NCBI GenBank assembly: GCA_033809295.1
Contig: JAPXLY010000001.1
Location: 10,340-74,339 of the forward strand
Direction of reading: 5' to 3'
DNA from: Bacillota bacterium
GTDB taxonomy: Bacteria; Bacillota; SHA-98; UBA4971
Length of the DNA stretch: 64,000 nt
Each line of letters starts with the position of its first letter. Position 1 is the first letter of the stretch. The translations under genes and the position numbers were made by a program. Positions 19,940 through 52,939 of the stretch are shown here, one piece after another. Below the pieces are notes generated by a model, which did no database searches, had not been told where the DNA came from, and saw only the letters and a program-made list of their open reading frames with translations.

Positions 19940-20099
19940 GATTTCACCTCATCCGCATGAAACACGTCTTTACATACTATGACTGAAAGACAGCAAGGGG
20001 TCACTTCAATACAATGTCAATAGAGTTAAATGCCAATAGAGTAATTGATTGACCGTTCGGGAAATGGTAAGATATAGATGTTCCACAATTGAATCCAAG

Positions 20100-20361
20100 A
20101 CCTGACAGGTGCCCTTTCAGGGAGAATAGGGAAGAGGAAGCAGGATATAACCTGTAATCCCGCGGTTCCCGCCACTGTATCCGGCGAGCGTCCTTTCATC
20201 TTGCCACTCAATATGGGGAAGGCTTAAGGACTTGCAATGACCCGGAAGCCAGGAGACCTGCCTGTCCAAGTTTGCTTGTTACGCCTTCGGTGAAAGGGGG
20301 TTGCAAGCCAAAAGTTTGTTTTGGCGATGTGCCCCGGTGGAAGGCCGGGGTACTTCTTTTT
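20100..20361 (+). promoter_or_regulatory. Cobalamin (B12) riboswitch with intrinsic terminator
   Basis: GCCACTG motif at 20171-20177. B12 box AAGCCAGGAGACCTGCC at 20245-20262. Terminator CCCCGGTGGAAGGCCGGGG plus T-run at 20332-20360. Confidence 0.75.
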
Positions 20362-29379: not shown

Positions 29380-29456
29380 TGGTGCGCCTAGCAGGACTTG
29401 AACCTGCGCACCCGGCTCCGGAGGCCGGTGCTCTATCCCCTGAGCTATAGGCGCAC
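29380..29456 (-). tRNA. tRNA-Arg (anticodon CCG)
   Basis: 77-nt cloverleaf GTGCGCC…CTCCGGA anticodon loop…GGTTCAAGTCC…CGCACCA, with encoded CCA. Confidence 0.8.
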
Positions 29457-31482: not shown

Positions 31483-31539
31483 CCCCTCTTTTAGTGTCCC
31501 TACATGCTTGAACGCCTTCGAATAGGACTATAAGCGCGC

Positions 31540-32217: not shown

Positions 32218-34981
32218 CCGGAGAAGCCAATTCCTGGTCGGGCGGTATCGGCCGGTCTTCTCCAGTAGGGTTTACCTGTACCTTTCCTTTGGCTTCATCA
32301 GGAAGGCGGTCTATTCGTACAGCACATACTTTAAACTCAGGGATTTTTGCCTTTGGATCCAAAGCCGGATTAGTCAGCACGTTGGCTGCCGCTTCAGCGA
32401 AGTGGAACGGCATAAATACCACACCGGGAGCAGGCCACGAAGTAACCATGGCCTTAACTTTGACTTCGCCTCTGCGGGAAGACACCAGAACCATCTCTCC
32501 GTCAGCGATACCCAGGTCTTTAGCAGTTTCCGGCGAGATTTCAATATACCCTTCAGGCCTATGGGCGTTGAGTGCCTTGGCCCTTCTGGTCATTGAGCCC
32601 GTATGGTAGTGATACAGCATCCGTCCTGTTGTAAGAGTTAACGGGTATTCTTCATCAGGGAGCTCTGCCGCGGGAATATATTCAACAGCAGTGAACAGTC
32701 CCAGGCCGCGGGAGAATTTGCCTTTATGCAAGTATGGCGTACCAGGGTGGTCCTCTGCAGGGCATGGCCACTGGAGCCCGTCGCCGGCTAACCGGCTATT
32801 AACTATTCCTCCGTAGATTGGCGTAAGCGAAGCGATCTCATCCAGTACTTCAGCAGGTGAGGAGTAGTTCATCGGATAACCCATCCGGTTTGATATCTCA
32901 GTGATGATTTCCCAGTCAGTCCTTGCTTCACCCGGAGGGTTTACTGCTTTTCTCACAAGCTGGACCCGTCTTTCCGTGCTGGTGAAAGTCCCCTCTTGTT
33001 CTGCGAAACAAGCGGAAGGAAGCACTACGTCTGCCAGTCTGGCTGTCTCCGTAAGAAAAATATCTTGCACGACCAGGAAGTCAAGATTCCTGAGTGCAGT
33101 TTCCACATGGTTGATGTCCGGGTCAGACACCATTGGGTTTTCACCCATAATGTAGAGGCCTTTGAGATTGCCATCGTAGGCGGCATTGATAGCTTCAGTT
33201 ACCGCAAGGCCTGGATTGGGTGGTAGTTCACATCCCCATGCCTTTTCGAATTTACCTCGAATGGCAGGGTCAGTGACTGCCTGATAACCCGGGAAAAGGT
33301 TGGGGAGTGCGCCCATGTCGCAGGCTCCTTGAACGTTATTCTGCCCGCGAAGGGGGTTGACTCCGACGCTTTCCTTACCCAGATTACCTGTGAGCATGGC
33401 CAAGTTTGCAGTTGAAAGCACGTTGTCGGTTCCGGTGGAATGCTGGGTTATGCCCATTGAGTAGATTAGGCTGGCCGTATCCGCTGTCGCGTAGGCTATT
33501 GCAGCTTCGATTATGTCGTCGGCTGGAACGCCGGTTATTTCTGATACGTGCTCAGGGGTATATTTACTTACAGAGTCCTTAAGAGCCTCAAAATTCTCAG
33601 TCCTTGTTTCGATGAAGTCCTTGTCGTGGAGGCCTTTGTCTATAATTACGTTCATCATACCGTTCAGAAGCGCAACGTCGGTACCGGGGCGATGCTGCAG
33701 GTAAATGTGTGCTTTTTGAGCCAGTTCAACTCTTCTGGGGTCTGCAACGATAAGTTTGGCGCCTCTTCTGAGTGCTTCTTTTACCTGAATACCGATTACA
33801 GGATGGTTTTCAGTAGTATTTGAACCAATGATGAACACTGCCTTGGCGTCTGCTATTTCGTGGATGGAGTTTGTCATAGCACCACTGCCGAAACTTGCGG
33901 CAAGTCCCGCAACGGTTGAAGCGTGACATAACCTGGCACAATGGTCAACGTTGTTAGTGCCTATAGTAGCTCTGGCAAGTTTTTGCATGAGATAGTTCGC
34001 TTCGTTTGTGCATTTGGCAGAGGAGAAAAATGCTACCGCATCAGGGCTGTGGCTATGTGCCAATTCGCCGAGTTTGGAACTCACGAGTTCAAGGGCTTCA
34101 TCCCAGGAGGCCTCCCTAAACCCATCGCCTTCCCTGATTAACGGTACCCTAAGCCGGTCCGGGTGATGGATAAAGTCAAGTCCGAACCTACCCTTAACGC
34201 AAGTGAATCCTTTGTTCACAGGGCCGTCCGCACCCGAAGCACCTACTACCTTGCCGTTTTTAACGTGCAGGTAAATGAGGCATCCTGTGCCACAGTACGG
34301 ACACGTGGTTTCCACTTTCGCGATCTCCCAAAAGCGGCCCTGCCCAATGCTTTGCTTTGGAATGAGGGCCCCTACAGGACAAACTTGCACGCAGTTGCCA
34401 CAAAATACGCATGGGGAGTTTTCTAACGGTTCTCCCCATGCAGGTGCCACTACAGTTTCATAGCCCCTGCCCACTGGGCTAATAGCATCCTGTCCTTGGA
34501 TGTCACTGCAAACAGCGACACATCGTCCGCATAAAATGCATTTACTTAAGTCTCTGATAAAGAAGGGGTTGGTATCGTCCAGTTCGGGAGCAGTTCTGTC
34601 TGAAGGGAATCTTCGCTCTTCCAGGCCGTACTCGTATGCGTACTCCTGAAGTTTGCAATCTCCGTTTTTTTCACAAGTCATACAATCCGTACGGTGGTTT
34701 GACAAGATGAGTTCCAGCACATTGCGTCTTGCTTGGCGCACAAATTCGGTATTAGTTTTGACTACCATGTTATTGACTACTGGAGTCACGCACGAAGCCA
34801 CAAGCGTCTTGGCCCTTTCAACTTCCACCAGGCATACTCTGCATCTGCCGGTTTCGTTTATATCCTTGAGATAACACAATGACGGTATCTCAATTCCGGC
34901 AGTTTTAGCAGCCTCCAAGATTGACGTTCCCTCTTCAACTTGAACCTGCGCACCGTCAATTGTCAGCGTTACCGAAGGCAT
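32204..34981 (-). CDS. fdhA: Formate dehydrogenase catalytic subunit (Mo/W-bisPGD), Cys-type, with NuoG-like N-terminal 2Fe-2S/4Fe-4S domains
   Basis: N-terminal 2Fe-2S ferredoxin, His-ligated cluster and two 4Fe-4S motifs. Molybdopterin oxidoreductase body. Active-site segment HCARLCH has Cys where Sec would be. No in-frame TGA. Confidence 0.85.
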   Translation of the reverse strand: MPSVTLTIDGAQVQVEEGTSILEAAKTAGIEIPSLCYLKDINETGRCRVCLVEVERAKTLVASCVTPVVNNMVVKTNTEFVRQARRNVLELILSNHRTDCMTCEKNGDCKLQEYAYEYGLEERRFPSDRTAPELDDTNPFFIRDLSKCILCGRCVAVCSDIQGQDAISPVGRGYETVVAPAWGEPLENSPCVFCGNCVQVCPVGALIPKQSIGQGRFWEIAKVETTCPYCGTGCLIYLHVKNGKVVGASGADGPVNKGFTCVKGRFGLDFIHHPDRLRVPLIREGDGFREASWDEALELVSSKLGELAHSHSPDAVAFFSSAKCTNEANYLMQKLARATIGTNNVDHCARLCHASTVAGLAASFGSGAMTNSIHEIADAKAVFIIGSNTTENHPVIGIQVKEALRRGAKLIVADPRRVELAQKAHIYLQHRPGTDVALLNGMMNVIIDKGLHDKDFIETRTENFEALKDSVSKYTPEHVSEITGVPADDIIEAAIAYATADTASLIYSMGITQHSTGTDNVLSTANLAMLTGNLGKESVGVNPLRGQNNVQGACDMGALPNLFPGYQAVTDPAIRGKFEKAWGCELPPNPGLAVTEAINAAYDGNLKGLYIMGENPMVSDPDINHVETALRNLDFLVVQDIFLTETARLADVVLPSACFAEQEGTFTSTERRVQLVRKAVNPPGEARTDWEIITEISNRMGYPMNYSSPAEVLDEIASLTPIYGGIVNSRLAGDGLQWPCPAEDHPGTPYLHKGKFSRGLGLFTAVEYIPAAELPDEEYPLTLTTGRMLYHYHTGSMTRRAKALNAHRPEGYIEISPETAKDLGIADGEMVLVSSRRGEVKVKAMVTSWPAPGVVFMPFHFAEAAANVLTNPALDPKAKIPEFKVCAVRIDRLPDEAKGKVQVNPTGEDRPIPPDQELASPVAAI

Positions 34982-40848: not shown

Positions 40849-40878
40849 TTTGCCGTATCCGATATCCCATTGTATAAT
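40849..40878 (+). promoter_or_regulatory. Putative sigma-A promoter for the sigma-54 activator gene (TTTGCC-18-TGTATAAT)
   Basis: Perfect TATAAT with an upstream TG. Lies just inside the ORF-track N-terminal extension of the activator ORF. Confidence 0.4.
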
Positions 40879-40900
40879 GTGTTGTGTGGGGGGGAGTAGG

Positions 40901-42193
40901 TTGCCGGGATTTGTCTTTGTCGATGACGATAAGTGTAATAGGTGTGGCGTGTGTATTCCGAACTGCCCTGTTGACGCCATATCCTCTGTGAGAGATAGAA
41001 TCATCGTGGATCCGCAAAGATGCGACGGATGCGGCGCATGCTTCAAGGTGTGCCCTGAAACCGCGTTCAGGCTTTCAGACGATCTTAAGGCAGTTTTGTG
41101 GGTATTGGCTTCAGGCGGGCAGGTGTCAAAAGAGCTTGATCAAACCTTTGCCGAAGCTCTTCCAGGTGTCGATAAAGATCGCATTACCAAAGCTGCCGGG
41201 CTTCTCCTGTCCTGGGAATCTCAGGATGCTAAGAAGTCCCGTGATTCCGCGGGAAACCCTATCATTGCATACAGCGTGGAAATGGGCAAAGTGTTGCAGG
41301 TAGCGACTAAGGTAGCACACGTGACCACGACTATTCTCATCCTGGGCGAATCAGGAGTCGGAAAAGAAGTGATCGCGCGATTCATCCATAATGCAAGCCT
41401 TCGCAAGAGTGGCCCCTTTGTCACCATAAACTGCGGAGCAATCCCTCCGAATCTTCTTGAATCCGAGTTATTCGGGTACGAGGCCGGCGCATTCACCGGT
41501 GCAAAACGCGAAGGCAAACCCGGGATGATAGAAGTCGCGTCTTCCGGCACACTCTTTCTTGACGAGATATCTGATCTCCCTCTTGATCTTCAAGTGAAAC
41601 TACTTCAAGTTATTCAGGAACGTCGTCTTACGCGGGTCGGCGGGATTCATCCTATTGAGGTTGATATCAGGATAATTGCCGCCACCAACAGGGACCTGGC
41701 AAAAATGGTGGAAAGAGGGGAGTTTCGTGCTGATCTCTTCTACAGACTGAATGTGGTCCCAATAGTCATCCCACCCCTGCGCAGCAGACGGGATGATATC
41801 ATTCCCTTGATTTATCATTTCTTAGCGAAACATAACAATACTCACCGGTACAACAAAACGATTTCCCGGGAGACAAGGGAAGTATTAACCCAGTACTCAT
41901 GGCCCGGTAACGTCAGGGAGCTTGAAAACCTTATAGAACGGCTTGTGGTCACAGTAGAAGGAGACGAAATCGGTGTAGAGGACTTGCCTCAGTATGTTAA
42001 GGAACGGGGTGTCAATTCCAATTCCAAGGTGACAGTGGAAGGAGTAATACCACTCCGTGAGGCTGTGGAAGAGGTTGAAAGGCAGTTAATCAAGCAGGCC
42101 AAGGAAGAGCATGAGACTACTTATGAAATAGCTGAGGCCCTCGGGGTGAACCAATCCACCGTTGTCAGGAAGCTAAAGAAATATGCACATTAA
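40901..42193 (+). CDS. Sigma-54-dependent transcriptional activator with N-terminal di-[4Fe-4S] ferredoxin-type sensor domain
   Basis: Two CxxCxxCxxxCP motifs (CNRCGVCIPNCP, CDGCGACFKVCP). AAA+ sigma-54 interaction domain with GAFTGA (ESELFGYEAGAFTGA). C-terminal Fis-type HTH. TTG start after GGGGGAG. Confidence 0.8.
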   Translation: MPGFVFVDDDKCNRCGVCIPNCPVDAISSVRDRIIVDPQRCDGCGACFKVCPETAFRLSDDLKAVLWVLASGGQVSKELDQTFAEALPGVDKDRITKAAGLLLSWESQDAKKSRDSAGNPIIAYSVEMGKVLQVATKVAHVTTTILILGESGVGKEVIARFIHNASLRKSGPFVTINCGAIPPNLLESELFGYEAGAFTGAKREGKPGMIEVASSGTLFLDEISDLPLDLQVKLLQVIQERRLTRVGGIHPIEVDIRIIAATNRDLAKMVERGEFRADLFYRLNVVPIVIPPLRSRRDDIIPLIYHFLAKHNNTHRYNKTISRETREVLTQYSWPGNVRELENLIERLVVTVEGDEIGVEDLPQYVKERGVNSNSKVTVEGVIPLREAVEEVERQLIKQAKEEHETTYEIAEALGVNQSTVVRKLKKYAH

Positions 42194-42207
42194 TGCACGT
42201 GTGCATT
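42192..42207 (+). promoter_or_regulatory. Palindrome AATGCAC-GT-GTGCATT, candidate enhancer (UAS) site
   Basis: 7-bp arms with a 2-bp spacer, overlapping the activator stop, about 320 bp upstream of the sigma-54 promoter. Confidence 0.3.
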
Positions 42208-42376
42208 ATGCGATGCTTGTTTGCATTTACTGCTGAATTCCCCGGTTTCGCCCGGCCTTTAAGGAATCAAGGAGACAATGCAAACGTCATTCCCCAGCTT
42301 GCAACTGTTAATAGCTCCGTGCAATTGAGATCCGTGTCATAAATAAACTTTCCAAAGAACGTGAAAATGAAGCAGA

Positions 42377-42415
42377 GCACGCCCGAATCCGTGCCGGTAA
42401 TGCACCGGCGCATTA
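42377..42415 (+). promoter_or_regulatory. Paired palindromes (GCACG-N8-CGTGC and TAATGC-ACCGGC-GCATTA), candidate enhancer sites
   Basis: 100-135 bp upstream of the sigma-54 promoter. Second palindrome shares the AATGCAC half-site with the 42192 element. Confidence 0.3.
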
Positions 42416-42512
42416 ATTCCGGCGGATTTTGTCATTGCTTGTCTGTTCGCCGATTGACTTTGTGACGCCTTTCACAAGGCTTTAGCGGAAATATGCCTGA
42501 TCCGGTGTGGAC

Positions 42513-42528
42513 TGGCACGATCCTTGCA
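42513..42528 (+). promoter_or_regulatory. Sigma-54 (-24/-12) promoter TGGCAC-N5-TTGCA for the hydrogenase operon
   Basis: Exact consensus GG-N10-GC spacing, 80 nt upstream of the hydC start. Confidence 0.7.
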
Positions 42529-42607
42529 CTACAATAGACTGTGGTTCCCGTTTCGGCAGGTATGGCAGTGCCCGTTTGCGGCTCTGGATCGGTAAGGAGG
42601 AATAGGT

Positions 42608-43102
42608 ATGGCCTGTGAGACGTGTACATGTATTAGCGAGATTACTGATGAACAAAGGGAGAAAGTCAGGGAGATAATCAAACACTACAAAGGGAAACCG
42701 GGTGTCCTGATTCAAACTCTACACGAAGCCCAGCAAGTGGTGGGTTATCTTCCCAGGGAAATCCAGGTTATGATTGCTGAGGGGCTGGATATTCCTCTCA
42801 GCGAGGTTTACAGCGTTGTAACGTTTTACGCGTTATTTTCGCTGAAGCCTAAGGGTAGGAATGTTATCAGTGTTTGCAAGGGAACGGCATGTTATGTTAA
42901 GGGCGTGGACGCCATAATGGAGAAACTCGAAGAAGACTTGGGGATCAAAGGGGAAGACACCACTGATGACGGAAGGTTCTCGGTGGAGATTGTCAGGTGT
43001 ATGGGAGCTTGCGGCCTTGGACCCGTGGTCAGAGTGAACGAGGATATATACGCGAGGGTCAAGCCGGATCAAATGAAGGAAGTATTGGCTAAGTATGAGT
43101 GA
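42608..43102 (+). CDS. hydC: [FeFe]-hydrogenase / NADH dehydrogenase 24-kDa-type subunit (HydC/NuoE-like, 2Fe-2S thioredoxin-like)
   Basis: NuoE-family sequence with CKGTAC…CMGACGLGP cluster motifs. Confidence 0.8.
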   Translation: MACETCTCISEITDEQREKVREIIKHYKGKPGVLIQTLHEAQQVVGYLPREIQVMIAEGLDIPLSEVYSVVTFYALFSLKPKGRNVISVCKGTACYVKGVDAIMEKLEEDLGIKGEDTTDDGRFSVEIVRCMGACGLGPVVRVNEDIYARVKPDQMKEVLAKYE

Positions 43103-43179
43103 TGTCATGACGTTTCCGGCTTGTTTTGAGCGTCGGTCTAAATTTGTGTGGTTGTTCCAGGATAAGGAGGCTTGGTAAC

Positions 43180-46100
43180 ATGGGTTCCTACAGGACACAT
43201 GTTCTGGTTTGCGGCGGGGCGGGTTGTGCCTCGTCAGGATGCAAAGATGTTGAACAGGCGCTTAATGATGAAATCACCAAGCAAGGCCTCGCCGACGAAA
43301 TCAGGGTTATCGTTACAGGATGTATGGGTCCTTGCGAATTGGGCCCCATCATTATTGTCTATCCGGAAGGGGTCCTTTATAGAAATCTCAAACCCGACGA
43401 CGCCCGTTTAATAGTCAAGGAGCATCTTTTGAAAGGGAGAATAGTTGACAGACTTCTTTACGTAACCCCGGACACAATGCAAAAAGTCCCTACGTATTCT
43501 GACATGGTTTTCTTCAACAGACAGCTTCGGATTGCACTTCGAAACACAGGCAAGATCGATCCTCTGGAAATAGAGGAGTACATAGCTGAAAACGGATATG
43601 CAGCCCTTGCAAAGGTCCTCTCCGAGATGACTCCGGAAGACGTGATAAACGTTCTGAAGAGTTCAGGCCTTCGAGGGAGAGGAGGGGCAGGGTTCCCCAC
43701 CGGTTTGAAATGGGACTTTACACGGAGAGCCAAGGGGGACCAGAAGTACGTAGTATGTAATGCTGACGAAGGCGACCCCGGTGCGTTCATGGACAGAAGC
43801 ATTATCGAAGGGGATCCCCATGCGATAATTGAGGCCATGTCAATCGCAGGCTACACTGTCGGGGCGAATCAGGGATATGTGTACGTCAGAGCCGAATATC
43901 CCCTGGCAGTTGCCCATCTTACACACGCTATCAACCAGGCCAGAGAGTATGGGCTCTTGGGCAAGGATATTCTCGGCAAAGGCTTCGATTTCGATTTGGA
44001 TATAAGGGTTGGAGCAGGCGCTTTTGTATGCGGAGAAGAGACGGCTCTTCTTGCTTCAGTCGAGGGTAGGCGCGGAGAACCAAGGCCCAGGCCGCCTTTC
44101 CCTGCCAGTAAAGGGTTGTTCGGAAAACCGACTCTTCTCAATAACGTAGAGACTTACGCGAATGTTCCTCCGATAATCCTCCGGGGCCCTGAGTGGTTTG
44201 CAGGCATCGGAACGGAAAAGAGCAAAGGCACGAAAGTGTTTGCCCTCGCAGGCAAAATCAACAATACAGGCCTTGTTGAGGTCCCCATGGGTACGCCCTT
44301 GGGAGAAGTCGTCTTTGATATCGGAGGAGGGATCCCCGACGGCAAAAAGTTTAAGGCAGCGCAGACCGGAGGGCCTTCAGGCGGATGCGTCCCAGCGGAA
44401 TTCCTCAATACGCCCATGGACTATGAGTCCTTAACCAAGCTTGGGACGATCATGGGCTCAGGCGGCCTCGTGGTAATGGACGAAGACACATGTATGGTAG
44501 ACTTGGCCAGGTTCTTCTTAGAGTTTACGCAGGATGAATCCTGTGGGAAGTGTGCTCCGTGCCGTATAGGTACAAAGAGGATGCTGGAGATTCTGACCAG
44601 AATCACCCGAGGCGAAGGACGCGAAGGAGACATCGAGCGTCTGATTAAACTGGGAACATGGATAAAAGAGACAGCCCTCTGCGGTTTGGGGCAGACTGCC
44701 CCGTCTCCGGTTCTCACTACTATACGTTACTTCAGAGACGAATACGAAGCTCACATAAGAGACAAGAAATGTCCGGCTTCAGTATGTGCTTCCTTGTTTG
44801 AATCACCGTGTCAGAACGCGTGTCCTGCTGATGTTGATGTGCCAAGGTACATCAATCTCATCAGACAGAAGAGATATCAGGAAGCTGTGAAGCTGATAAA
44901 GGAGAAAAACCCGTTCCCTGCGGTGTGCGGCCGGGTTTGCACTCATCCGTGTGAAGGCAAATGCAGAAGAGCCCAACTTGACCAGGCGCTTGCCATTTGC
45001 GAGCTAAAGCGGTTCGCTGCTGACTATGAGCTCGAGAATCCAATCCCTGTGGAGAAGCCTGAGGTTCAGAAAGGTACTAAAGTGGCAATTGTCGGGGCCG
45101 GCCCTGCAGGCCTTACCGCAGCTTACTACCTGGCTCAACTGGGACACGAAGTGACGGTGTTCGAAGCCTTACCGAAACCGGGTGGCATGTTACTTGTGGG
45201 AATCCCCGAGTACAGACTGCCCAAGGACATCCTCGGCGCGGAGATCGACTACATTGAGAGAATGGGAGTCCGGATACGCACAGGAGAAAAGGTAGGTAAG
45301 GACGTAACCATTGATGACCTGAAGGCTGACGGGTACAAGGCAATACTCATCACAGTCGGTGCCAACGTTAGCCAGAGGCTTGGAGTGCCAGGGGAAGACC
45401 TGGACGGCGTAATCGGCGCTGTTGAGTTCCTCCAAGACGTCAATTTGGGCAGAAATCCAAAGGTTGGCAAGAAGGTTGCAGTAATAGGAGGAGGTAACGC
45501 CGCTATAGACGCTGCCAGAACTGCTCTTCGTCTGGGGGCATCTGAGGTTCACATTATATACAGGCGCCAGCGAGAAGACATGCCTGCAGACAAAGCGGAA
45601 ATAGCTGAGGCTGAACGCGAAGGGATCAAGATACACTTCCTGACTGTGCCGGTGAAAATGATAGGTAGAGAGGGCAAGCTCACTAACATGGAGTGTGTCA
45701 GAATGTCCTTGGGCGAATTCGACCGCAGCGGACGAAGGCGTCCTGTTGAGATAGAGGGGTCGAATTTCATTGTTGATGTGGACATGGTTATCCCTGCCAT
45801 AAGCCAGAGGCCCGATATGTCTGTCTTGCCCGGTAGATCCGGAATTGAGACCACGAGATGGTCTACGATAGTTGCAGACACAAGGACTCTTGCCACAGGC
45901 GAACCCGGAATATTCGCAGGTGGTGACTGTGTACACGGGCCTGATACTGTAATTCAGGCGATTGCAGACGGTAGACGCGCTGCAATGGAGATTGATAAGT
46001 ACCTTGGCGGAACCGGGGAGATTCCTGTAAGCCCTGACCTTGGTCGGGAGCAGATCGGCGAAATCCACGAGGAACAGATGCCAAGGCAACATCCAGGTGT

Positions 46101-46212
46101 GCTACCCGTTGAGCGGAGATACGCCAACTTCAACGAAGTCGTTGATAAGTTCACTGAGGCTCAAGCACTCTTTGAAGCTTCGCGCTGTCTCCGGTGCGAC
46201 GTGAAGGACTAA
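43180..46212 (+). CDS. hydB: HydB/NuoF-like flavoprotein subunit fused to a C-terminal GltD-like NAD(P)H oxidoreductase domain
   Basis: N-terminal thioredoxin-like 2Fe-2S domain. NuoF FMN/NADH site GLRGRGGAGFPTGLKW and 4Fe-4S motifs. GltD-type Fe-S linker. Rossmann motifs VAIVGAGPAGLTAA and VAVIGGGNAAIDAA. Confidence 0.8.
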   Translation: MGSYRTHVLVCGGAGCASSGCKDVEQALNDEITKQGLADEIRVIVTGCMGPCELGPIIIVYPEGVLYRNLKPDDARLIVKEHLLKGRIVDRLLYVTPDTMQKVPTYSDMVFFNRQLRIALRNTGKIDPLEIEEYIAENGYAALAKVLSEMTPEDVINVLKSSGLRGRGGAGFPTGLKWDFTRRAKGDQKYVVCNADEGDPGAFMDRSIIEGDPHAIIEAMSIAGYTVGANQGYVYVRAEYPLAVAHLTHAINQAREYGLLGKDILGKGFDFDLDIRVGAGAFVCGEETALLASVEGRRGEPRPRPPFPASKGLFGKPTLLNNVETYANVPPIILRGPEWFAGIGTEKSKGTKVFALAGKINNTGLVEVPMGTPLGEVVFDIGGGIPDGKKFKAAQTGGPSGGCVPAEFLNTPMDYESLTKLGTIMGSGGLVVMDEDTCMVDLARFFLEFTQDESCGKCAPCRIGTKRMLEILTRITRGEGREGDIERLIKLGTWIKETALCGLGQTAPSPVLTTIRYFRDEYEAHIRDKKCPASVCASLFESPCQNACPADVDVPRYINLIRQKRYQEAVKLIKEKNPFPAVCGRVCTHPCEGKCRRAQLDQALAICELKRFAADYELENPIPVEKPEVQKGTKVAIVGAGPAGLTAAYYLAQLGHEVTVFEALPKPGGMLLVGIPEYRLPKDILGAEIDYIERMGVRIRTGEKVGKDVTIDDLKADGYKAILITVGANVSQRLGVPGEDLDGVIGAVEFLQDVNLGRNPKVGKKVAVIGGGNAAIDAARTALRLGASEVHIIYRRQREDMPADKAEIAEAEREGIKIHFLTVPVKMIGREGKLTNMECVRMSLGEFDRSGRRRPVEIEGSNFIVDVDMVIPAISQRPDMSVLPGRSGIETTRWSTIVADTRTLATGEPGIFAGGDCVHGPDTVIQAIADGRRAAMEIDKYLGGTGEIPVSPDLGREQIGEIHEEQMPRQHPGVLPVERRYANFNEVVDKFTEAQALFEASRCLRCDVKD

Positions 46213-46232
46213 AGAATGGAGAGTGAACCAGG

Positions 46233-47957
46233 ATGGATATGCTTACTGTGACTATAGACGGCAATAAGGTTCAAGTGCCCGCAGGATCAACGATTCTCGA
46301 TGCGGCGCATGTAGCTGGGGTAGACATACCTACTCTCTGTTACTTGGAAGATATCAACGTTGTGGGAGTCTGTCGTATTTGCGTGGTTGAGGTTGAAGGT
46401 GCAAAATCCTTGCAAGCCTCGTGTGTCACTCCTGCTTCAGATGGTATGGTAGTCAGGACTAATACTCCTGCCGTACGTGAAGCTCGAAGGACTGTTCTCG
46501 AGCTTATCATATCAAACCACCCTTACGAGTGTCTGACTTGTGAGCGATCCGGAAACTGCGAGCTTCAAGCGATGGCGGATAGGTTCAACATACGTGACAT
46601 CGGGTATGAAGGAGAGAAAAGCGAATTTCCGAAAGACTCTTCAAGCCCGTCAATTGTCCGGGATCCTAACAAGTGCATCCTTTGCAGGCGATGTGTAAGC
46701 GTTTGCCAGGAAGTCCAATCTGTGTGCGCGCTTGCGCCCAATGACAGAGGGTTCGACACAATGGTCGGCCCGGCATTTGCCGATGATCTCATGCAAGCAG
46801 TCTGCACCATGTGCGGCCAATGTGTTCTTGTGTGTCCTGTCGGGGCCTTGACGGAACATGACGCTACGGAAGATGTCTGGGCTGCGCTGGCGGATCCCAC
46901 GAAGCATGTGGTAGTTCAGACTGCGCCTGCAGTGAGAGCCAGCATCGGGGAAGAACTGGGTATGCCTGCAGGCTCCAGAGTTACAGGTCAAATGGTGGCA
47001 GCCCTCCGAAGGCTGGGATTTGACAGAGTGTTCGACACGGACTTCACCGCTGACCTTACGATCATAGAAGAAGGACACGAACTGCTGGAGCGGCTCAACA
47101 CCGGAGGGGCATTGCCACTCATTACTTCGTGCAGTCCGGGCTGGATCAAGTTCATTGAGCACTTCTTCCCAAGCTTGTTGCCGCATGTGTCTACATGCAA
47201 GTCTCCTCAGCAGATGTTCGGGGCTCTTGCCAAGACTTACTATGCCGAGAAGGCAGGCATTGACCCTAAGGACATCTTTGTCGTGTCAGTGATGCCGTGT
47301 ACTGCCAAGAAGTTCGAGGCACAGAGGCCTGAGATGACATCAAGCGGCTATCCTGATGTAGACGTCGTCCTGACCACGAGAGAGCTGGGGAGGATGATAC
47401 GGGAGGCAGGGATTGACTTCCAGTCGCTGCCTGCTGAAGACTATGATGACCCGCTGGGTATATCCACAGGCGCAGCAGTTATCTTCGGGGCGTCAGGCGG
47501 AGTAATGGAAGCCGCCTTGAGGACTGTGTACGAAGTAGTCACTGACAGTGAGTTGGAGAACATCGACTTTAAGGATGTACGAGGCATTGAAGGCTGTAAG
47601 GAAGCCCAGGTTGACATCAATGGCACCGTTGTCAATGTAGCGGTGACCAACGGGCTGAAGAACGCAAGGAAGCTTCTGGAAAGGATAGCAAAAGGTGAAG
47701 CGGATTATCACTTTGTTGAAATCATGGCATGTCCCGGTGGGTGCATAGGCGGAGGCGGACAGCCGATTCCTACTAACACAGAAACCAGGTTGAAAAGGAT
47801 CAGTGCAATATATGAGGAAGACAGGAACATGCCGATTCGTAAGTCTCACCTAAATCCTCAAATCCAGGAGCTGTATAAGGAATTCCTTGGGAAACCTCTC
47901 GGAGAGAAATCCCATGAACTCCTCCATACTCACTATACTCCCAGACTCAAGGTGTAG
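46233..47957 (+). CDS. hydA: [FeFe]-hydrogenase catalytic subunit (HydA, CpI-like M3 architecture) with Ser at the proton-relay Cys position
   Basis: 2Fe-2S and accessory 4Fe-4S domains. H-cluster motifs L1 TSCSPGW (normally TSCCPxW), L2 MPCTAKKFE, L3 EIMACPGGCIGGGGQP. Confidence 0.85.
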   Translation: MDMLTVTIDGNKVQVPAGSTILDAAHVAGVDIPTLCYLEDINVVGVCRICVVEVEGAKSLQASCVTPASDGMVVRTNTPAVREARRTVLELIISNHPYECLTCERSGNCELQAMADRFNIRDIGYEGEKSEFPKDSSSPSIVRDPNKCILCRRCVSVCQEVQSVCALAPNDRGFDTMVGPAFADDLMQAVCTMCGQCVLVCPVGALTEHDATEDVWAALADPTKHVVVQTAPAVRASIGEELGMPAGSRVTGQMVAALRRLGFDRVFDTDFTADLTIIEEGHELLERLNTGGALPLITSCSPGWIKFIEHFFPSLLPHVSTCKSPQQMFGALAKTYYAEKAGIDPKDIFVVSVMPCTAKKFEAQRPEMTSSGYPDVDVVLTTRELGRMIREAGIDFQSLPAEDYDDPLGISTGAAVIFGASGGVMEAALRTVYEVVTDSELENIDFKDVRGIEGCKEAQVDINGTVVNVAVTNGLKNARKLLERIAKGEADYHFVEIMACPGGCIGGGGQPIPTNTETRLKRISAIYEEDRNMPIRKSHLNPQIQELYKEFLGKPLGEKSHELLHTHYTPRLKV

Positions 47958-48026
47958 TACAGGACTTATGCATGCAAGCCGGTTAGCGCGAATCCCGCTT
48001 ACATGCAAGTGATTGATAAGGAATCG

Positions 48027-48064
48027 TCAGCGCCATGGCATTCCACATGGCGCTGGCTTTTTCT
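48027..48064 (+). terminator. Rho-independent terminator after hydA
   Basis: CAGCGCCATG…CATGGCGCTG hairpin followed by a T-run. Confidence 0.6.
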
Positions 48065-48217
48065 TGATACTTCTATTATCATCATCTATGATAAGCAGGA
48101 ATACCTCTTTGACTGAAAGTACTGTATAATCTATAAGCATAACGGTATAAGCATAATGGGTACCGGAACGAGGATCCCGCACATAGATGGGGCCACCCGC
48201 TAAAAGGGGGCATATTC

Positions 48218-49036
48218 GTGGATCTTGTGACGTATTTGAAAAACTCCAAATTGAGGCGAAATAATACGCAATCAAGAATGAAATTTATGCTATTGGTGGG
48301 TTTATCCTTAATCCTGTGTGTTGCTCTGCAAGATGTGCCTATGTTAATGTGCAGTGTCTCGGCGGAGAATTCGTCTGATGAGGTAGTTCTGGAGTTTGAT
48401 ACCCTATCAGATAAGACCCATACGTATCAGGTTTTGATAAGTGAGACTGTATACTCAGAGGGGCAGAGACTGACAAATCTCTATAGAGAAGATTTTAAGA
48501 TACAGGAGACTGCTGTCGCAAACGGCAAGGTCTTACGGGCTGTTGTGTGTGTAGGCAGCGTCGCTCCTGTAGGCGGGGAAATCAGGAAGCTGGATCCTTC
48601 GGACTACTACTTGACTGTTGACAAGACCGGCCGAATTATTGAGGTACGAGGCCTCAAACCTTGGGACGGGCGTCGTTTGGAAACTATCTGGCTGGCCCAG
48701 GCGCTTCTCCCTGAGCATCCTGTTCGCCCAGGAGATACGTGGACGGTAAATGATGCCTTTTTCTCTATGACTTCAGCCGGGAAGACGCCGGAGAAACGTG
48801 CCTACCGGTTCCTGGGAACAGAGGACCTGGGTACTGCCACTGCATATAAGATTGGATATGAAATTGTCGGTAAGGGACAAGATGGCTTGCAAGACTACAC
48901 TTATGTCTCTACCGGCTCCTTCTATCTGGCGTCCGGAACCCTTGTGAAGCTGGATGCATCTGAAATGCTGACTTACGCCGGTAGTTCCGAGGACTCCAAA
49001 ATCATTACGATGGTACAGGTAAACATTGTAAATTAG
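48218..49036 (+). CDS. Hypothetical exported protein
   Basis: Signal-peptide-like MKFMLLVGLSLILCVA segment. No motif recognised. Alternative start at 48278. Confidence 0.5.
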   Translation: MDLVTYLKNSKLRRNNTQSRMKFMLLVGLSLILCVALQDVPMLMCSVSAENSSDEVVLEFDTLSDKTHTYQVLISETVYSEGQRLTNLYREDFKIQETAVANGKVLRAVVCVGSVAPVGGEIRKLDPSDYYLTVDKTGRIIEVRGLKPWDGRRLETIWLAQALLPEHPVRPGDTWTVNDAFFSMTSAGKTPEKRAYRFLGTEDLGTATAYKIGYEIVGKGQDGLQDYTYVSTGSFYLASGTLVKLDASEMLTYAGSSEDSKIITMVQVNIVN

Positions 49037-49394: not shown

Positions 49395-49706
49395 ATGGAG
49401 ACGATGACAGGGACGAGTAGGTTGCATCCCGGAGTTTCAGCGAACCGAGGGAGGTGTAAGTCGGGGCTCAGGAGCGCCGAAAATCACCCTGGAGTAGCCA
49501 CGCGAAATCAGAGACGGTACTTTGTGCCGGACGACGAGAGTAGACGTGGCCGGGCCCTCCCGATACAGAGGTATGGCATTTTGGACGCAGCATGGCTTAG
49601 GCTGGGTTTAATGTGTCTATGAGTGGGTTGCCAGAGGCAGCCAATTTGGGTGGTACCGCGAGAGTTGAGTCTCCCGTCCCGATTTCGGGGCGGGAGATTT
49701 TTGTAC
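49395..49706 (+). promoter_or_regulatory. T-box riboswitch leader (Ile-specific, putative) controlling ileS
   Basis: T-box sequence AATTTGGGTGGTACCGCG at 49643-49660. Terminator CTCCCGTCCC…GGGGCGGGAG plus T-run. Candidate AUC specifier in GAAAATCACC. Confidence 0.75.
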
Positions 49707-49738: not shown

Positions 49739-52700
49739 ATGTTCAGGAAAGTCGAACCAGGAAGGAACATGCCTCATATGGAGGAGGAAATCCTGGAATT
49801 CTGGAAGAAGCAGGGGATTTTTCAAAAAACGCTGCAGAAAACCAAAGACGGGCCGAGATTTATATTCTATGAAGGCCCGCCGACTGCAAATGCAATGCCC
49901 CACCCAGGGCATGTGCTTACTCGTGTCATGAAGGATCTCATTCCCAGGCATCGGACAATGTGCGGCTACCATGTGCCGAGAAAAGGCGGATGGGACACTC
50001 ATGGGCTTCCTGTGGAACTGGAGATAGAAAAGGAATTAGGCATAAGCGGGAAGCCTCAGATAGAGGAGTACGGTGTCGAGAATTTCATCGAGAAGTGCAA
50101 GGAAAGCGTATTCCGCTACAAGAGAGAGTGGGAACGCATGACAGAGCGCGTAGGTTTTTGGATTGACTTGGACAACGCCTACGTGACGTATGAGGACTAC
50201 TACATTGAGTCTGTATGGTGGGCTCTGAAAAAGATATGGGATAAAGGCCTCCTGTATAAAGGGCATAAGGTGGTCCCGTATTGTCCAAGGTGTGGGACAG
50301 CCTTGTCAAGTCATGAGGTTGCCCAGGGCTATCAAGAGGTTGAAGACCCGTCTGTTTATGTCAAATTCTCGCTAAAGGGTGAAGATGATACAGCGTTTCT
50401 TGTATGGACCACAACTCCGTGGACTCTTCCGTCTAACGTAGCCCTGGCAGTACATGCGGACGCTATCTACGTGAAAATTGGACTGACCGGCACAGGCAGC
50501 AAATTAATTCTGGCAAAGGAACTTCTGAGTTCTGCAATCCCTGATGATGAAGGCTACGAGGTCATAGATGAATTCAAAGGCGAATCTTTGGTCGGAGCAG
50601 AGTATGAGCCCTTGTTCCGGTATACCGTGCCACGTAAGAAAGCTTGGTATGTGGTGAGCCAGGACTTTGTCACTCTTTCAGACGGCACAGGTATAGTCCA
50701 TTTGGCCCCTGCGTTCGGCGAAGATGACATGAATGCGTCCTTGCAGCATGATCTGCCTGTAATCCAACTGGTAGACGAGGAAGGAAGGTTCACCGAGGAA
50801 GTGACGGAGTGGAAAGGGATGCCTGTCAAAGAAGCCGATCCTTTGATCATAGAAGACCTCAAGTCCCGCGGCAGTCTTTACAGAAGCCAGGAATACGCTC
50901 ACACCTATCCATTCTGTTGGAGATGTGACACTCCGCTTCTCTATTACGCTCGGACTTCGTGGTTTATTAAGACTACTGCCGTAAAGGACGCCTTGCTGCG
51001 TAACAACAACGCAGTATCTTGGTATCCGCAATACATCAAAGATGGGCGCATGGGAAACTTCCTGGAAAACGTCATTGATTGGGCAGTCAGCAGAGAACGT
51101 TACTGGGGCACTCCTCTCCCTATCTGGATATGTGATGATTGTGGCGAAACCCATTGTGTAGGGAGTATTGAGGAGCTTAAGGAAATGGCATTTGAGCTTC
51201 CTGAAAAGCTGGAACTCCACAGGCCTTATATAGACAAGGCACGTCTTCGTTGCCCGAAGTGCGGAGGCTCCATGGGAAGAACCAAAGAGGTTATAGACGC
51301 GTGGTTTGACTCAGGGTCTATGCCATTTGCCCAGTGGCACTATCCTGTGGAAAACGATGATGAATTCAAGCGCAATTTCCCGGCGGACTTCATCAGTGAG
51401 GCTATAGATCAGACCCGTGGATGGTTCTACACCTTGCTTGTTATCTCAACTCTGCTTTTCGACAAGCCTCCGTTTGAGAGTGTCCTCGTGCTGGGGCATG
51501 TACTTGACGCGGAAGGGATGAAAATGAGCAAGAGCAAGGGGAATGTGGTGGACACGTGGGAAGTGTTCAACACATACGGGGCTGACGCATTTCGTTGGTA
51601 CCTCTATACCGTCAATCCTCCCTGGAACCCGACACGTTTTTACCTTGAAGCGATAGGCGAATCGCAGCGGAGATTCTTGTCGACTTTATGGAACGTGTAT
51701 TCCTTCTATGTTCTTTATGCGAACGTAGACGGGTTTGATCCCGGTGCGTATCAACTACCGGTGGAAGAGAGAGGGATTCTTGACAGGTGGATTATCTCAC
51801 GGTTCAACAGGCTCGCAGAGACCGTGCAGACTGAGCTTGAAGCCTACAGCATTACACCTGCAGCCAGGGCTATAGAAGAATTTACAGATGACTTGAGCAA
51901 CTGGTACGTAAGGCGATCAAGGCGCCGCTACTGGGGCGCTGAGATGACTCAGGACAAAATTGCGGCATATCTTACGTTGCACGAGATGCTTGTAGGCCTC
52001 TCGAAGTTGCTTGCCCCGTTTACTCCCTTTATATCAGAGGAGATATATAGGAATCTCGAAGGAGAAAGGAGAAACGGAGCCCCTGAAAGCGTCCACCTTT
52101 GCGAGTACCCTGTCTGTAGTCAGAATCTGATGGATCCTGAATTGGAGCAAAACATGGCAGTTGCAAGGAAACTGGTAACCTTAGGCAGGTCTGCCAGAAG
52201 CAAGGTTAACATCAAGATTAGGCAGCCTCTCAGTGAAATGGTGGCTGTTCTTCAGGATCCCAGGGGTCAAAAGGCTGTTTGCGAGCTGGCGACGATAATT
52301 AAAGAGGAACTGAATGTTAAATCCATCCGGGTGGCAGAGGATGTCAGCGAGTTTGTGGCCTATAGAGTAAAACCCAGGTTTGACCTCCTGGGTCCGAAAT
52401 ACGGCAAGCTTATGAGACATATTGTGGCCGGGCTGGAGGGCCTAAATCCCAGAGACATAGTGGCTGAGCTTGAAGATAAGGGACGTGTTGACATTCCTTG
52501 CGGGGAAGAGGCCGTATCTGTCCTCGCTGAGGAGCTGATTGTTGACACTGTGGAGCAGGAAGACTTTGCCATTGAAAGTGAGGGAGAGGTAACCTGCGCT
52601 CTTCGCACGGCTTTGTCTCGTGAGTTAGTCATGGAGGGTCTTGCCAGAGAGATGGTAAACAAGATCCAGACAATGCGGAAGGAAGCTGACTTCAATGTTG

Positions 52701-52939
52701 AGGACAGAATCGTTACAGTGTTCTGGTCTGACAGCGAAGTAGAAGAAGCGTGTATGCTCCACAAGGATTACATCATGGAAGAGACTCTTTCCAGGGATTT
52801 CGTATATGGTGGTGAGGCCGGACTCGCGAAGCCTGTAGGGGAGCATTATCGAGAGTGGGATCTAAATGGCCACCTTACCGCAATCAGCGTAAGTCGTAAA
52901 GAGGTGGACGAACTTGGACAGAGAGGTTCAGAAGCATGA
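49739..52939 (+). CDS. ileS: Isoleucyl-tRNA synthetase, type 2 (eukaryote-like)
   Basis: HIGH-region variant HPGH, KMSKS present, 1066 aa. N-terminus (MFRKVEPGRNMPHMEEEILEFW) resembles the type-2 enzymes. Confidence 0.9.
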   Translation: MFRKVEPGRNMPHMEEEILEFWKKQGIFQKTLQKTKDGPRFIFYEGPPTANAMPHPGHVLTRVMKDLIPRHRTMCGYHVPRKGGWDTHGLPVELEIEKELGISGKPQIEEYGVENFIEKCKESVFRYKREWERMTERVGFWIDLDNAYVTYEDYYIESVWWALKKIWDKGLLYKGHKVVPYCPRCGTALSSHEVAQGYQEVEDPSVYVKFSLKGEDDTAFLVWTTTPWTLPSNVALAVHADAIYVKIGLTGTGSKLILAKELLSSAIPDDEGYEVIDEFKGESLVGAEYEPLFRYTVPRKKAWYVVSQDFVTLSDGTGIVHLAPAFGEDDMNASLQHDLPVIQLVDEEGRFTEEVTEWKGMPVKEADPLIIEDLKSRGSLYRSQEYAHTYPFCWRCDTPLLYYARTSWFIKTTAVKDALLRNNNAVSWYPQYIKDGRMGNFLENVIDWAVSRERYWGTPLPIWICDDCGETHCVGSIEELKEMAFELPEKLELHRPYIDKARLRCPKCGGSMGRTKEVIDAWFDSGSMPFAQWHYPVENDDEFKRNFPADFISEAIDQTRGWFYTLLVISTLLFDKPPFESVLVLGHVLDAEGMKMSKSKGNVVDTWEVFNTYGADAFRWYLYTVNPPWNPTRFYLEAIGESQRRFLSTLWNVYSFYVLYANVDGFDPGAYQLPVEERGILDRWIISRFNRLAETVQTELEAYSITPAARAIEEFTDDLSNWYVRRSRRRYWGAEMTQDKIAAYLTLHEMLVGLSKLLAPFTPFISEEIYRNLEGERRNGAPESVHLCEYPVCSQNLMDPELEQNMAVARKLVTLGRSARSKVNIKIRQPLSEMVAVLQDPRGQKAVCELATIIKEELNVKSIRVAEDVSEFVAYRVKPRFDLLGPKYGKLMRHIVAGLEGLNPRDIVAELEDKGRVDIPCGEEAVSVLAEELIVDTVEQEDFAIESEGEVTCALRTALSRELVMEGLAREMVNKIQTMRKEADFNVEDRIVTVFWSDSEVEEACMLHKDYIMEETLSRDFVYGGEAGLAKPVGEHYREWDLNGHLTAISVSRKEVDELGQRGSEA

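Follow-up and report, generated by a model that had tools for sequence, protein, structure and literature searches.

What are the redox partners of a trimeric [FeFe]-hydrogenase whose flavoprotein subunit, HydB, ends in a module of the glutamate synthase small-subunit (GltD) type? This question is raised by an operon in a 64-kb stretch of DNA from a Bacillota bacterium (contig JAPXLY010000001.1, positions 10,340 to 74,339 of the forward strand), the whole of which is referred to here as the window. In current models of HydABC and Bfu enzymes, the low-potential electron is passed to ferredoxin through the C-terminal domain of the B subunit. The initial annotation of the window, made from the sequence alone, had proposed that this hydrogenase couples H2 to NADH and NADPH rather than to NADH and ferredoxin. 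Here, the GltD-type module was found to occupy the place of the ferredoxin-like domain of HydB, which points, tentatively, to NADP(H) as the low-potential partner.

A HydABC-type operon with a NuoF::GltD fusion subunit

Genes in the window were called as open reading frames (ORFs) and assigned by searches against Pfam and NCBIfam profiles. Four genes, all on the plus strand, lie between 40.8 and 48.1 kb in the order activator, hydC, hydB::gltD and hydA, just where the initial annotation had located them. hydC (42608-43102) encodes a NuoE-like [2Fe-2S] subunit (cluster C1) of 164 amino acids (aa) with a thioredoxin fold, matching the Pfam profile 2Fe-2S_thioredx from end to end (E = 1e-51) as well as HoxE/NuoE models in NCBIfam. 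The ORF of hydB::gltD opens at 43126; its ATG at 43180 has AAGGAGG in front, and the 1010-aa frame ends at 46212. hydA (46233-47957) encodes a 574-aa [FeFe]-hydrogenase catalytic subunit of the M3 architecture, laid out as a [2Fe-2S] cluster, a His-ligated [4Fe-4S] cluster, two further [4Fe-4S] clusters, the H-cluster domain and a small-subunit-like tail. The subunit logic suggested earlier is thus borne out by both profile collections, and we are highly confident that these parts form a three-gene HydC-HydB-HydA iron hydrogenase.

The 1010-aa protein can be read as four consecutive parts. A thioredoxin-like [2Fe-2S] domain with Cys11/16/48/52 forms the N-terminus (43180-43422, residues 1-81), followed by a NuoF core (43537-44787, residues 120-536) with the FMN/NAD(H) site, an SLBB domain, a [4Fe-4S] four-helix bundle and a Zn-hinge site. 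Seven residues, ASLFESP (44788-44808), link hinge Cys536 to the first Cys of the GltD/NfnB/StnC-type module (44809-46212 including the stop codon, residues 544-1010), which carries motifs for two [4Fe-4S] clusters, FAD and NADPH. In Pfam, the thioredoxin-like 2Fe-2S domain was matched at residues 5-81, Complex1_51K at 160-330, NADH_4Fe-4S at 441-525, Fer4_20 at 531-620 and Pyr_redox_2 at 634-931, together with SLBB. The four families expected from the first reading (Complex1_51K, NADH_4Fe-4S, Fer4_20 and Pyr_redox_2) were therefore all found, and the N-terminal 2Fe-2S domain was found in addition. The C-terminal GltD-type domain claimed there is likewise a real fusion, but it comprises about 470 aa rather than the roughly 430 aa given, and it replaces another domain rather than being an extra one.

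The conservation of the fusion was examined in an alignment of the query with 117 colinear homologues of 985-1050 aa that share 61-92% identity with it (118 sequences). The ligands of the N-terminal [2Fe-2S] cluster (Cys11/16/48/52), the FMN/NADH motifs GRGGAGF and GAGAFVCGEE, and the ligands of the [4Fe-4S] bundle (Cys455/458/461/501) are invariant. Equally invariant are the hinge-site residues Cys438/His525/Cys531/Cys536, which match C437/H524/C529/C534 of NfnB from Thermococcus sibiricus, the cluster ligands of the GltD module (Cys544/548/583/587/591/595/1003/1006), and the FAD signature GAGPAG639 with Glu662. The NADPH signature, GGGNAA770 with Tyr794-Arg795-Arg796, is conserved with the sole exception of Arg796, which is His in one sequence. 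The module, whose nucleotide-binding motifs had been called from a single sequence, thus retains intact FAD and NAD(P)H sites on alignment.

The reading frame runs without stop or shift through 44700-44800, the interval in which a frame artefact had been considered. The exact protein is on record: NLB73248.1 comes from the genome of an uncultured Bacillota bacterium. Its 90% cluster comprises 70 sequences; the members listed are found on hundreds of contigs, a near-identical one on 317. An AlphaFold2 model built on the alignment has a mean predicted local distance difference test score (pLDDT) of 84.5 and a predicted template modelling score of 0.73, with pLDDT below 50 at linker residues 537-541. 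In a Foldseek search against the PDB, no single solved chain spanned both halves, and the best TM-score normalised to the query was 0.48.

A StnC-type module in place of the ferredoxin-like domain

To locate the module relative to known HydB architecture, the fusion was aligned with six canonical HydBs of 597-614 aa from the examined loci. The fusion is colinear with all six up to '...RYFRDEYEAHIRDKKCPASVCASLFE', including the His/Cys hinge. Beyond the hinge, the canonical proteins run into two CxxCxxCxxxCP motifs and then end. These two motifs (clusters B3/B4) are absent from the window HydB::GltD in this alignment; its chain continues for seven residues past the hinge and then enters the module with 'CQNACP...', the first module Cys lying 8 residues from Cys536. 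On this alignment, the GltD module stands immediately behind the Zn hinge where canonical HydB has its C-terminal 2x[4Fe-4S] ferredoxin-like domain; it replaces that domain, and an add-on to an otherwise complete HydB is ruled out. Since published work assigns the ferredoxin site to the replaced domain, the idea of an NADP-linked enzyme that does not use ferredoxin is strengthened.

The function of the replaced domain is documented in related enzymes. Cryogenic electron microscopy and molecular dynamics simulations placed ferredoxin reduction at HydB's C-terminal domain, whose deletion left low bifurcation activity (Katsyv et al., PMC10021017). The equivalent domain is likewise given as the ferredoxin site in Stn (PMC10482914) and NfnABC (PMC12018979). 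At the other end of the subunit, removal of the N-terminal [2Fe-2S] domain from HydB of Thermoanaerobacter kivui abolished most bifurcation activity (PMC12018979).

The best PDB sequence matches of the module were 9bov_A (449 bits), 9n5u_A and 8oh5_C. The module is thus nearest to the NADPH-binding insert in the A subunits of NfnABC from Caldicellulosiruptor saccharolyticus and T. sibiricus and to StnC of Sporomusa ovata, and is more distant in sequence from NfnB/NfnL and true GltD. Over its last 30 residues ('...RYANFNEVVDKFTEAQALFEASRCLRC'), the module can be aligned with the N-terminal end of NfnB from Thermotoga maritima; this match of the C-terminal '...RCLRC' to an N-terminus indicates a circular permutation as in StnC/NfnA. 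Moreover, Lys610, invariant in the fusion family, aligns with K170 of StnC, where T. maritima NfnB has Glu. Lys170 is strictly conserved in StnC, is required for full activity and is Glu in NfnB, and the StnC FAD is non-bifurcating, with NADPH electrons passing through two clusters into an Fe-S wire (Kumar et al., PMC10482914). Judged by its best match, the permutation and Lys610, the module is of the StnC/NfnA type. An NfnB-type bifurcating FAD was also considered for the module and is judged unlikely, because the permutation and Lys610 are StnC-like.

A bifurcating-type NuoF core and HydA

The first 540 residues of HydB share 64% identity with HydB of Acetobacterium woodii (7q4v_B) and 55% with that of T. 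kivui. Losey 2020 (PMC7311640) distinguished bifurcating beta subunits, which have A/E..M in GAFMD, Phe in GAGAF and a GGPSG motif, from non-bifurcating ones, which have T/S..K/S/A, Tyr and no GGPSG. The window HydB carries the bifurcating residue at all three positions (A202-F203-M204, F282 and G397-G401), and these are invariant in a 43-sequence alignment. A non-bifurcating core of the Syntrophomonas wolfei type, which has the opposite residues at the three signature positions, is thereby ruled out. In a crude neighbour-joining tree of the NuoF core, short HydBs of the non-bifurcating type fall outside, and the hydrogenase-partnered fusions lie beside the canonical HydBs; the tree was used only for this closeness and for the outside place of the short forms, and no evolutionary direction was drawn from it.

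HydA matches Fe_hyd_lg_C (1.7e-105), Fe_hyd_SSU, Fer2_4 and NADH-G_4Fe-4S_3 in Pfam, and contains the motifs TSCSPGW, MPCTAKKFE and EIMACPGGC. The L1 motif is TSCSPGW and not TSCCPxW (47127-47147, residues 299-305). The same Ser-for-Cys exchange occurs in HydA1 of A. woodii, where it is noted as the replacement of one ligand of the H-cluster's [4Fe-4S] part (Katsyv et al., PMC10021017). HydA scores 946 bits against NCBIfam NF040763 ('NADH-dependent [FeFe] hydrogenase, group A6'; cut-off 765), and its best PDB match is A. woodii HydA1 (7q4v_A, 720 bits). As to whether HydA belongs to group A2 or A3, these best hits suggest its placement with the trimeric 'bifurcating' type (A3; 'A6' in NCBIfam) rather than with A2. 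In group A2 of the HydDB scheme ('glutamate-synthase-linked'), an A2-lineage HydA stands beside a separate GltD-like gene with no NuoE/NuoF pair, whereas the GltD part in the window is fused to NuoF.

Distribution and gene neighbourhoods of the fusion

To assess how common the fusion is, 5.8 billion proteins were searched, and genomes were scanned with one genome per species and the best 80 matches retained. The protein search returned more than 100 full-length clusters at 61-92% identity, and at 50% clustering about 12 distinct full-length clusters were present among the top 150 matches. Complete fusions among the matches listed come from Armatimonadota, Nitrospirota, Halanaerobiales, Thermodesulfobacteriota, Syntrophales, Chloroflexota, Verrucomicrobiota, Gemmatimonadota and others. 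Cultivated carriers among the matches are Moorella/Neomoorella species, N. humiferrea and N. stamsii included, Thermanaeromonas toyohensis, Pelotomaculum terephthalicicum and Lucifera butyrica; their fusions, like the others, are annotated only as 'NuoF' or 'HndC'. Moorella thermoacetica was not among the 15 of 25 members listed of the 64%-identical Moorella cluster, which are all from other Neomoorella/Moorella species, and the cluster is thus probably not the characterised HydABC of M. thermoacetica. The NuoF::GltD fusion is therefore widespread, not rare.

Gene neighbourhoods were surveyed at 34 GTDB loci with the fusion and at seven close relatives found by the exact protein. A hydC homologue lies upstream of the fusion in all 31 loci whose upstream flank is covered. 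hydA follows directly in 11 of the 34 loci and is the next gene in each of the seven close relatives. Two sets of hydrogenase genes stand in tandem at L003, L017 and L087, the last from a Syntrophorhabdaceae metagenome-assembled genome (MAG), where hydC, a short hydB of 524 aa and hydA are directly followed by hydC, hydB::gltD and hydA (L087:2598-11805), with HydF and radical-SAM maturase genes nearby. At L010 and L021, a hydA belonging to the NuoE + fusion pair is missing, and a separate hydC-hydB-hydA set comes after the pair.

Other partners follow the pair elsewhere. A formate dehydrogenase alpha subunit with a NuoG-like N-terminus comes after the fusion at L004, L006, L024, L025 and L034, and is split in three of these five loci, presumably at a selenocysteine codon. 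In five Chloroflexota/Dehalococcoidia loci, MetV (DUF5981) comes directly after the pair (L012:5554-6198, L014:3905-5454, L016:7953-9504, L026:11219-11863 and L032:11068-11709), with MetF, the methylene-tetrahydrofolate reductase, after it where the contig continues. This gene order suggests an NADH/NADPH-linked methylene-tetrahydrofolate reductase complex in Chloroflexota; the question of what donates electrons to MetFV-type reductases is an old one. At L022 and L028, the genes after the pair encode a small Fe-S protein and a Glu_synthase-domain protein. The searches also returned proteins of about 640-660 aa (P0199, P0207 and similar) that join the NuoF four-helix-bundle [4Fe-4S] domain to the GltD module and match the query over residues ~407-1006. 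These NADH_4Fe-4S::Fer4_20::Pyr_redox_2 proteins of about 650 aa correspond to NCBIfam PRK12771 'NAD(P)-binding protein' and may be SfrB-like.

A formate dehydrogenase cluster is also present in the window itself, on the minus strand at 30649-34981, and consists of FdhA (32204-34981), a MobA-like protein (31540-32217) and FdhD (30649-31482). This FdhA has a NuoG-like N-terminus, is of the Cys type ('..ARLCHAST..') and is 53% identical over 911 aa to the FdhA downstream of the NuoE + NuoF::GltD pair at L024. No NuoE or NuoF genes lie beside it within the 64-kb window, and a sharing of the HydC/HydB::GltD module by this FdhA would be pure speculation.

Proposed mechanism and energetics

The reading that we favour, as plausible though short of probable, is that the operon may encode a HydABC/Bfu-type hydrogenase in which NADP(H) replaces ferredoxin as the low-potential partner, so that H2 would be exchanged with both NAD and NADP. 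HydA would oxidise or form H2, and its accessory clusters would lead to the HydB/HydC core as in A. woodii HydABC, by homology to solved structures. NAD(H) would be bound at the FMN site. From the mobile [2Fe-2S] cluster of HydC, a branch would run to the two [4Fe-4S] clusters of the GltD module, instead of to a ferredoxin-like domain, and from there to FAD and NADP(H). With NADP(H) as the more negative partner, the overall reaction would be 2 H2 + NAD+ + NADP+ <-> NADH + NADPH + 2 H+, and in the reverse direction NAD+ reduction would help to push NADP+ reduction at low H2. Such a role is consistent with the StnC-type module being a shown non-bifurcating entry for NADPH in Stn (PMC10482914), and with the bifurcating signatures, the N-terminal [2Fe-2S] domain and the Zn hinge all being kept in the NuoF core. 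The early proposal of H2 coupling to NADH and NADPH without ferredoxin thus stands as far as the parts, the motifs and the lost ferredoxin site are concerned, while the functional coupling itself is what we infer from them.

The energetic range of such a coupling was estimated from cellular potentials of -280 mV for NADH, -380 mV for NADPH and -414 mV for H2 at 1 bar (Schut et al., PMC9304861, Table 1) with a Nernst slope of 29.6 mV per decade. The maximum H2 pressure calculated in this way is ~3 Pa for NADH alone, ~7 kPa for NADPH alone and ~150 Pa for NADH and NADPH jointly. With 150 Pa against 3 Pa attainable without reduced ferredoxin, coupling would be of use in either direction at such H2 levels as are found in digesters and sediments.

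Several points weigh against this reading. No assay of a NuoF::GltD hydrogenase was found in the full-text literature searched, and its function beyond homology is what we infer. The only paper found on a HydB with a glutamate-synthase domain, an archaeal one (Greening et al. 2024, PMC11216029), proposes ferredoxin as partner of this domain and leaves NADP unmentioned. Ferredoxin could also still dock on the module, since its site in NfnAB is the distal [4Fe-4S] cluster of the homologous subunit (PMC5861303). The FMN site of T. kivui HydB uses NADP (PMC10021017), and that of the window HydB may therefore prefer either nucleotide. At standard potentials, the reduction of NAD+ or NADP+ by H2 requires no coupling.

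The same docking site and the bifurcating-type signatures kept in the core would also suit a four-substrate hybrid of HydABC and a transhydrogenase, in which ferredoxin docks at the outer GltD [4Fe-4S] cluster as on NfnB, NADP(H) is an additional substrate, and H2, NAD(H), NADP(H) and ferredoxin are equilibrated; the assignment 'likely ferredoxin' given by Greening et al. 2024 to the glutamate-synthase domain of the fused HydB (PMC11216029) fits it as well. We nevertheless consider this hybrid unlikely. The module is StnC-like (permuted, Lys for Glu) and not NfnB-like, and in Stn the module clusters are an internal wire, with ferredoxin on the ferredoxin-like domain of StnB (PMC10482914), a domain missing in the window HydB. 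The position of the first module Cys, 8 residues from the hinge, further suggests a cluster that faces the core and not the solvent.

Somewhat less likely again is an uncoupled NAD(P)H-dependent hydrogenase with independent nucleotide sites or with a single working site beside a vestigial one. Like the hydrogenases of syntrophs that do without ferredoxin, it would exchange electrons between H2 and either pyridine nucleotide, according to availability. The ferredoxin-like domain is lost as in NADH-dependent enzymes of the non-bifurcating kind (PMC7311640), genomes of the syntroph type contain relatives (Pelotomaculum, Syntrophorhabdaceae and Syntrophales), and the reduction of NAD+ or NADP+ by H2 is exergonic at standard potentials. 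However, the three signature positions all carry invariant residues of the bifurcating type, the Zn hinge and the N-terminal [2Fe-2S] domain are kept, and the short non-bifurcating-type HydBs fall outside the fusion/canonical group in the crude neighbour-joining tree. Both nucleotide sites are moreover strictly conserved, and neither therefore looks vestigial.

It is improbable that the GltD-type module serves another acceptor or partner, such as the large subunit of a glutamate synthase, or else polysulfide or Fe(III) (SudA/SfrB-like activities), in which case the hydrogenase would supply that reaction and not the NADP pool. Homologous modules do occur in glutamate synthase, sulfide dehydrogenase and SfrAB (PMC7483475), a Glu_synthase-domain protein and a small Fe-S protein follow the pair at L022 and L028, and the ~650-aa proteins share the NuoF four-helix-bundle::GltD junction; yet no such partner gene is found in the window operon or in the seven close relatives examined, the NADPH signature is conserved, and a terminator lies directly 3' of hydA. 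Finally, a sequencing, assembly or frame error that merged separate nuoF-like and gltD-like genes has next to no probability and is ruled out by the continuous ORF, the deposited NLB73248.1 and the 117 full-length colinear homologues from isolates and MAGs of many phyla, and the C-terminal RCLRC segment completes the first cluster of the module, which makes the module a permuted, integrated unit.

A bolder claim, which we regard as doubtful, is that this would be the first Bfu-type enzyme to bifurcate or confurcate between two pyridine nucleotides without ferredoxin (NADPH at low, NADH at high and H2 at mid potential), and that NuoE + NuoF::GltD would be a portable NADH/NADPH coupling core for hydrogenase, formate dehydrogenase, MetVF and a GltB-like enzyme.

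Predicted regulation by sigma-54

The operon is preceded by the gene of a sigma-54 enhancer-binding activator (40901-42193, plus strand), which has an N-terminal 2x[4Fe-4S] ferredoxin domain, an AAA+ domain with GAFTGA and a C-terminal helix-turn-helix (HTH). Its ORF opens at 40850, and the product has 430-447 aa depending on the start. The TTG at 40901, with GGGGGGAG in front, is the likely start and gives 430 aa, equal in length to the 74%-identical orthologue at L081. A sigma-70-like promoter candidate for this gene (TTGCCG-17-TATAAT, 40850-40878, plus strand) agrees with 10 of 12 consensus positions, a consensus match only, and is flanked by the stop codon of the preceding ABC-exporter gene (40831) on one side and by the probable TTG start on the other. 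The Pfam matches of the activator are Fer4, Sigma54_activat (2.3e-69), AAA_lid_14 and HTH_50, with GAFTGA at ORF residue 213.

A -24/-12 element, TGGCACGATCCTTGCA (42513-42528, plus strand; -24 GG, -12 GC), lies ~80 nt upstream of the hydC start and is the sole exact TGGCAC-N5-TTGCW in the window. The sigma-54 promoter and dedicated upstream activator that had been read from the sequence are thus supported by a consensus element, GAFTGA and HTH_50. A repeat search identified a near-perfect distal palindrome, TAATGCAC-N2-GTGCATTA (42191-42208), as a candidate activator site ~320 nt upstream of the -24 element, with a weaker copy of the motif beside it (ATGCTTGTTTGCATT, 42213-42227) that is 80% identical to the reference copy. 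A second near-perfect palindrome, TAATGCACCGGCGCATTA (42398-42415), is a further candidate activator site ~100 nt upstream of the -24 element and matches the distal copy at 83-84%. No RNA family was found in the 415-nt hyd leader by an Rfam scan. Downstream, an intrinsic terminator-like hairpin (48026-48067, plus strand) with a 12-bp stem of 8 GC pairs, followed by TTTTTCTT, lies 69 nt past the hydA stop. Transcription of the hyd genes is predicted to depend on sigma-54 and the adjacent activator.

A similar arrangement is found in relatives. The 74%-identical activator at L081 stands beside an 88%-identical operon and is also of the Fer4 type, and the -24/-12 element there, TGGTATGGTTTTTGCA, is at -95 from hydC, equal to the distance in the window. 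At L084, a 75% relative, a sensor-less activator is accompanied by TGGCATATTCCTTGCG at about the same distance from hydC, and at L086 (Lucifera) a near-consensus element, CGGCACGATTCATGCA, is nearer to hydC (~-63). When the sequences upstream of hydC at the 34 loci were scanned for -24/-12 elements with a strict regular expression, only that of L081 was returned; those of L084 and L086 were added by eye. Repeats of the AATGCA...TGCATT type occur upstream of hydC at L081, L084 and L086. No -24/-12 element was seen in the intergenic stretches inspected by eye at L082 and L085, whose operons probably have their start at a more upstream point.

Sigma-54 activators of 745-886 aa stand beside fusion-type hyd operons at L082:16697-18934, L085:12056-14347 and L086:3074-5734. 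In these proteins, the N-terminal half consists of an [FeFe]-hydrogenase domain of the sensory type (Fer4 + Fe_hyd_lg_C + FeS; in Lucifera also PAS), followed by AAA+ and HTH, and they look like H2-sensing enhancer-binding proteins. Such activators with an H-cluster domain are found in Moorella sp. Hama-1, T. toyohensis and L. butyrica. The AAA+/HTH part of the window activator is 64% identical to that of the L. butyrica protein (L086), and its Fer4 domain shares 31-38% identity with the N-terminal Fer4 of the H-cluster-domain activators. The window activator looks like a version that keeps only the Fe-S part of these proteins, and its N-terminal 2x[4Fe-4S] domain probably senses redox state.

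Other features of the window

Downstream of the hyd genes, a 272-aa ORF with no Pfam match (48218-49036, plus strand) lies between the hyd terminator and a T-box leader; at the same position, L084 has a 286-aa gene, also with no Pfam match. The RNA elements of the window are a cobalamin riboswitch (20090-20279), this T-box leader (49395-49684) and one tRNA gene (29383-29454) on the minus strand. The T-box precedes an isoleucyl-tRNA synthetase-like gene (49739-52939), and the riboswitch precedes an uptake system of periplasmic-binding-protein, FecCD and ABC components together with a CobO-type adenosyltransferase. FeoB appears to be divided on the minus strand between two ORFs (17388-19939) that overlap by ~150 nt, one with FeoA + FeoB_N (18791-19939) and the other with Gate + FeoB_C (17388-18938). 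A frameshift, an error in sequencing or a gene that is truly split could account for this.

Significance and comparison with known systems

The domain swap leaves every other 'bifurcating' feature intact, and the fusion enzyme therefore offers a direct test of the HydABC/Bfu models. If NADH and NADPH are indeed coupled to H2 without ferredoxin, a flavin/cluster site could bifurcate onto a two-electron nucleotide acceptor. Such coupling would likewise account for the disposal of catabolic NADPH as H2, at realistic H2 pressures, by anaerobes such as oxidisers of acetate or propionate, Moorella-like acetogens operating in reverse and digester Bacillota like the present one. The fusion family occurs commonly in metagenomes, cultivated strains carry it too, and its annotation as plain 'NuoF' or 'HndC' hides a likely NADP link in metabolic reconstructions.

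The NuoF::GltD architecture is not described in Schut et al. 2022 (PMC9304861), Losey 2020 (PMC7311640), Kremp 2020 or Kumar 2023 (PMC10482914). It has already been seen in archaea, in another context and as a model only (PMC11216029): the group F hybrid [FeFe]/[NiFe] hydrogenases have, in the hydrogenase cluster, a NuoF-like HydB with a domain of the glutamate-synthase-small-subunit type, given as a 'glutamate synthase (GltA) domain' and modelled from 7E5Z_B and 7MFM_I (Greening et al., Cell 2024, PMC11216029). The archaeal complex, likened here by description, differs in its HydA-HyhS fusion, HyhL and NuoG-like HydD. In the literature searched, no description was found of the HydABC form in bacteria, of the ferredoxin domain being replaced or of the module belonging to the StnC type.

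The NADH-dependent [FeFe]-hydrogenases of the S. wolfei and Syntrophus aciditrophicus type, which do not bifurcate, are ferredoxin-independent by design, have no C-terminal ferredoxin-like domain and belong to low-H2 organisms (PMC7311640). They have T/S..K and Tyr, no GGPSG and no FAD/NADPH module, whereas the window protein has A..M, Phe and GGPSG. The ~650-aa PRK12771 proteins share the NuoF four-helix-bundle::GltD junction but have no FMN/NAD(H) domain or N-terminal [2Fe-2S] domain of their own. NfnAB/NfnSL (T. maritima 4ylf and Pyrococcus furiosus 5jca) resembles the module in fold, in FAD and NADPH motifs and in its two [4Fe-4S] clusters (338-366 bits; root-mean-square deviation of 1.8 A to 5jca_L). 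In the window, however, the segments are permuted and Lys replaces the Glu cluster ligand, and no NfnA/NfnS-type partner gene (FNR-like, [2Fe-2S]/FAD) is present in the operon or its flanks. Moreover, the FAD of NfnB bifurcates and that of the StnC type does not (PMC10482914).

HydABC of A. woodii (7q4v) and T. kivui (8a6t) has the same three subunits in the same roles, with the N-terminal [2Fe-2S] domain, FMN site, [4Fe-4S] bundle and Zn hinge; its B subunit ends in a 2x[4Fe-4S] domain of ~60 residues, where the window protein has a FAD/NADPH/2x[4Fe-4S] module of ~470 residues instead. Stn/NfnABC (S. ovata 8oh5, C. saccharolyticus 9bov and T. sibiricus 9n5u) shares the module type (392-449 bits), its permutation and the Lys that modulates the FAD-proximal cluster, as well as a homologous NuoE/NuoF-like core. 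In these enzymes, the module is inserted in a NuoG/FdhF-like A subunit without an active site and the B subunit keeps its ferredoxin-like domain, whereas in the window enzyme the module has taken that domain's place at the C-terminal end of the B subunit, and a complete HydA serves as A subunit.

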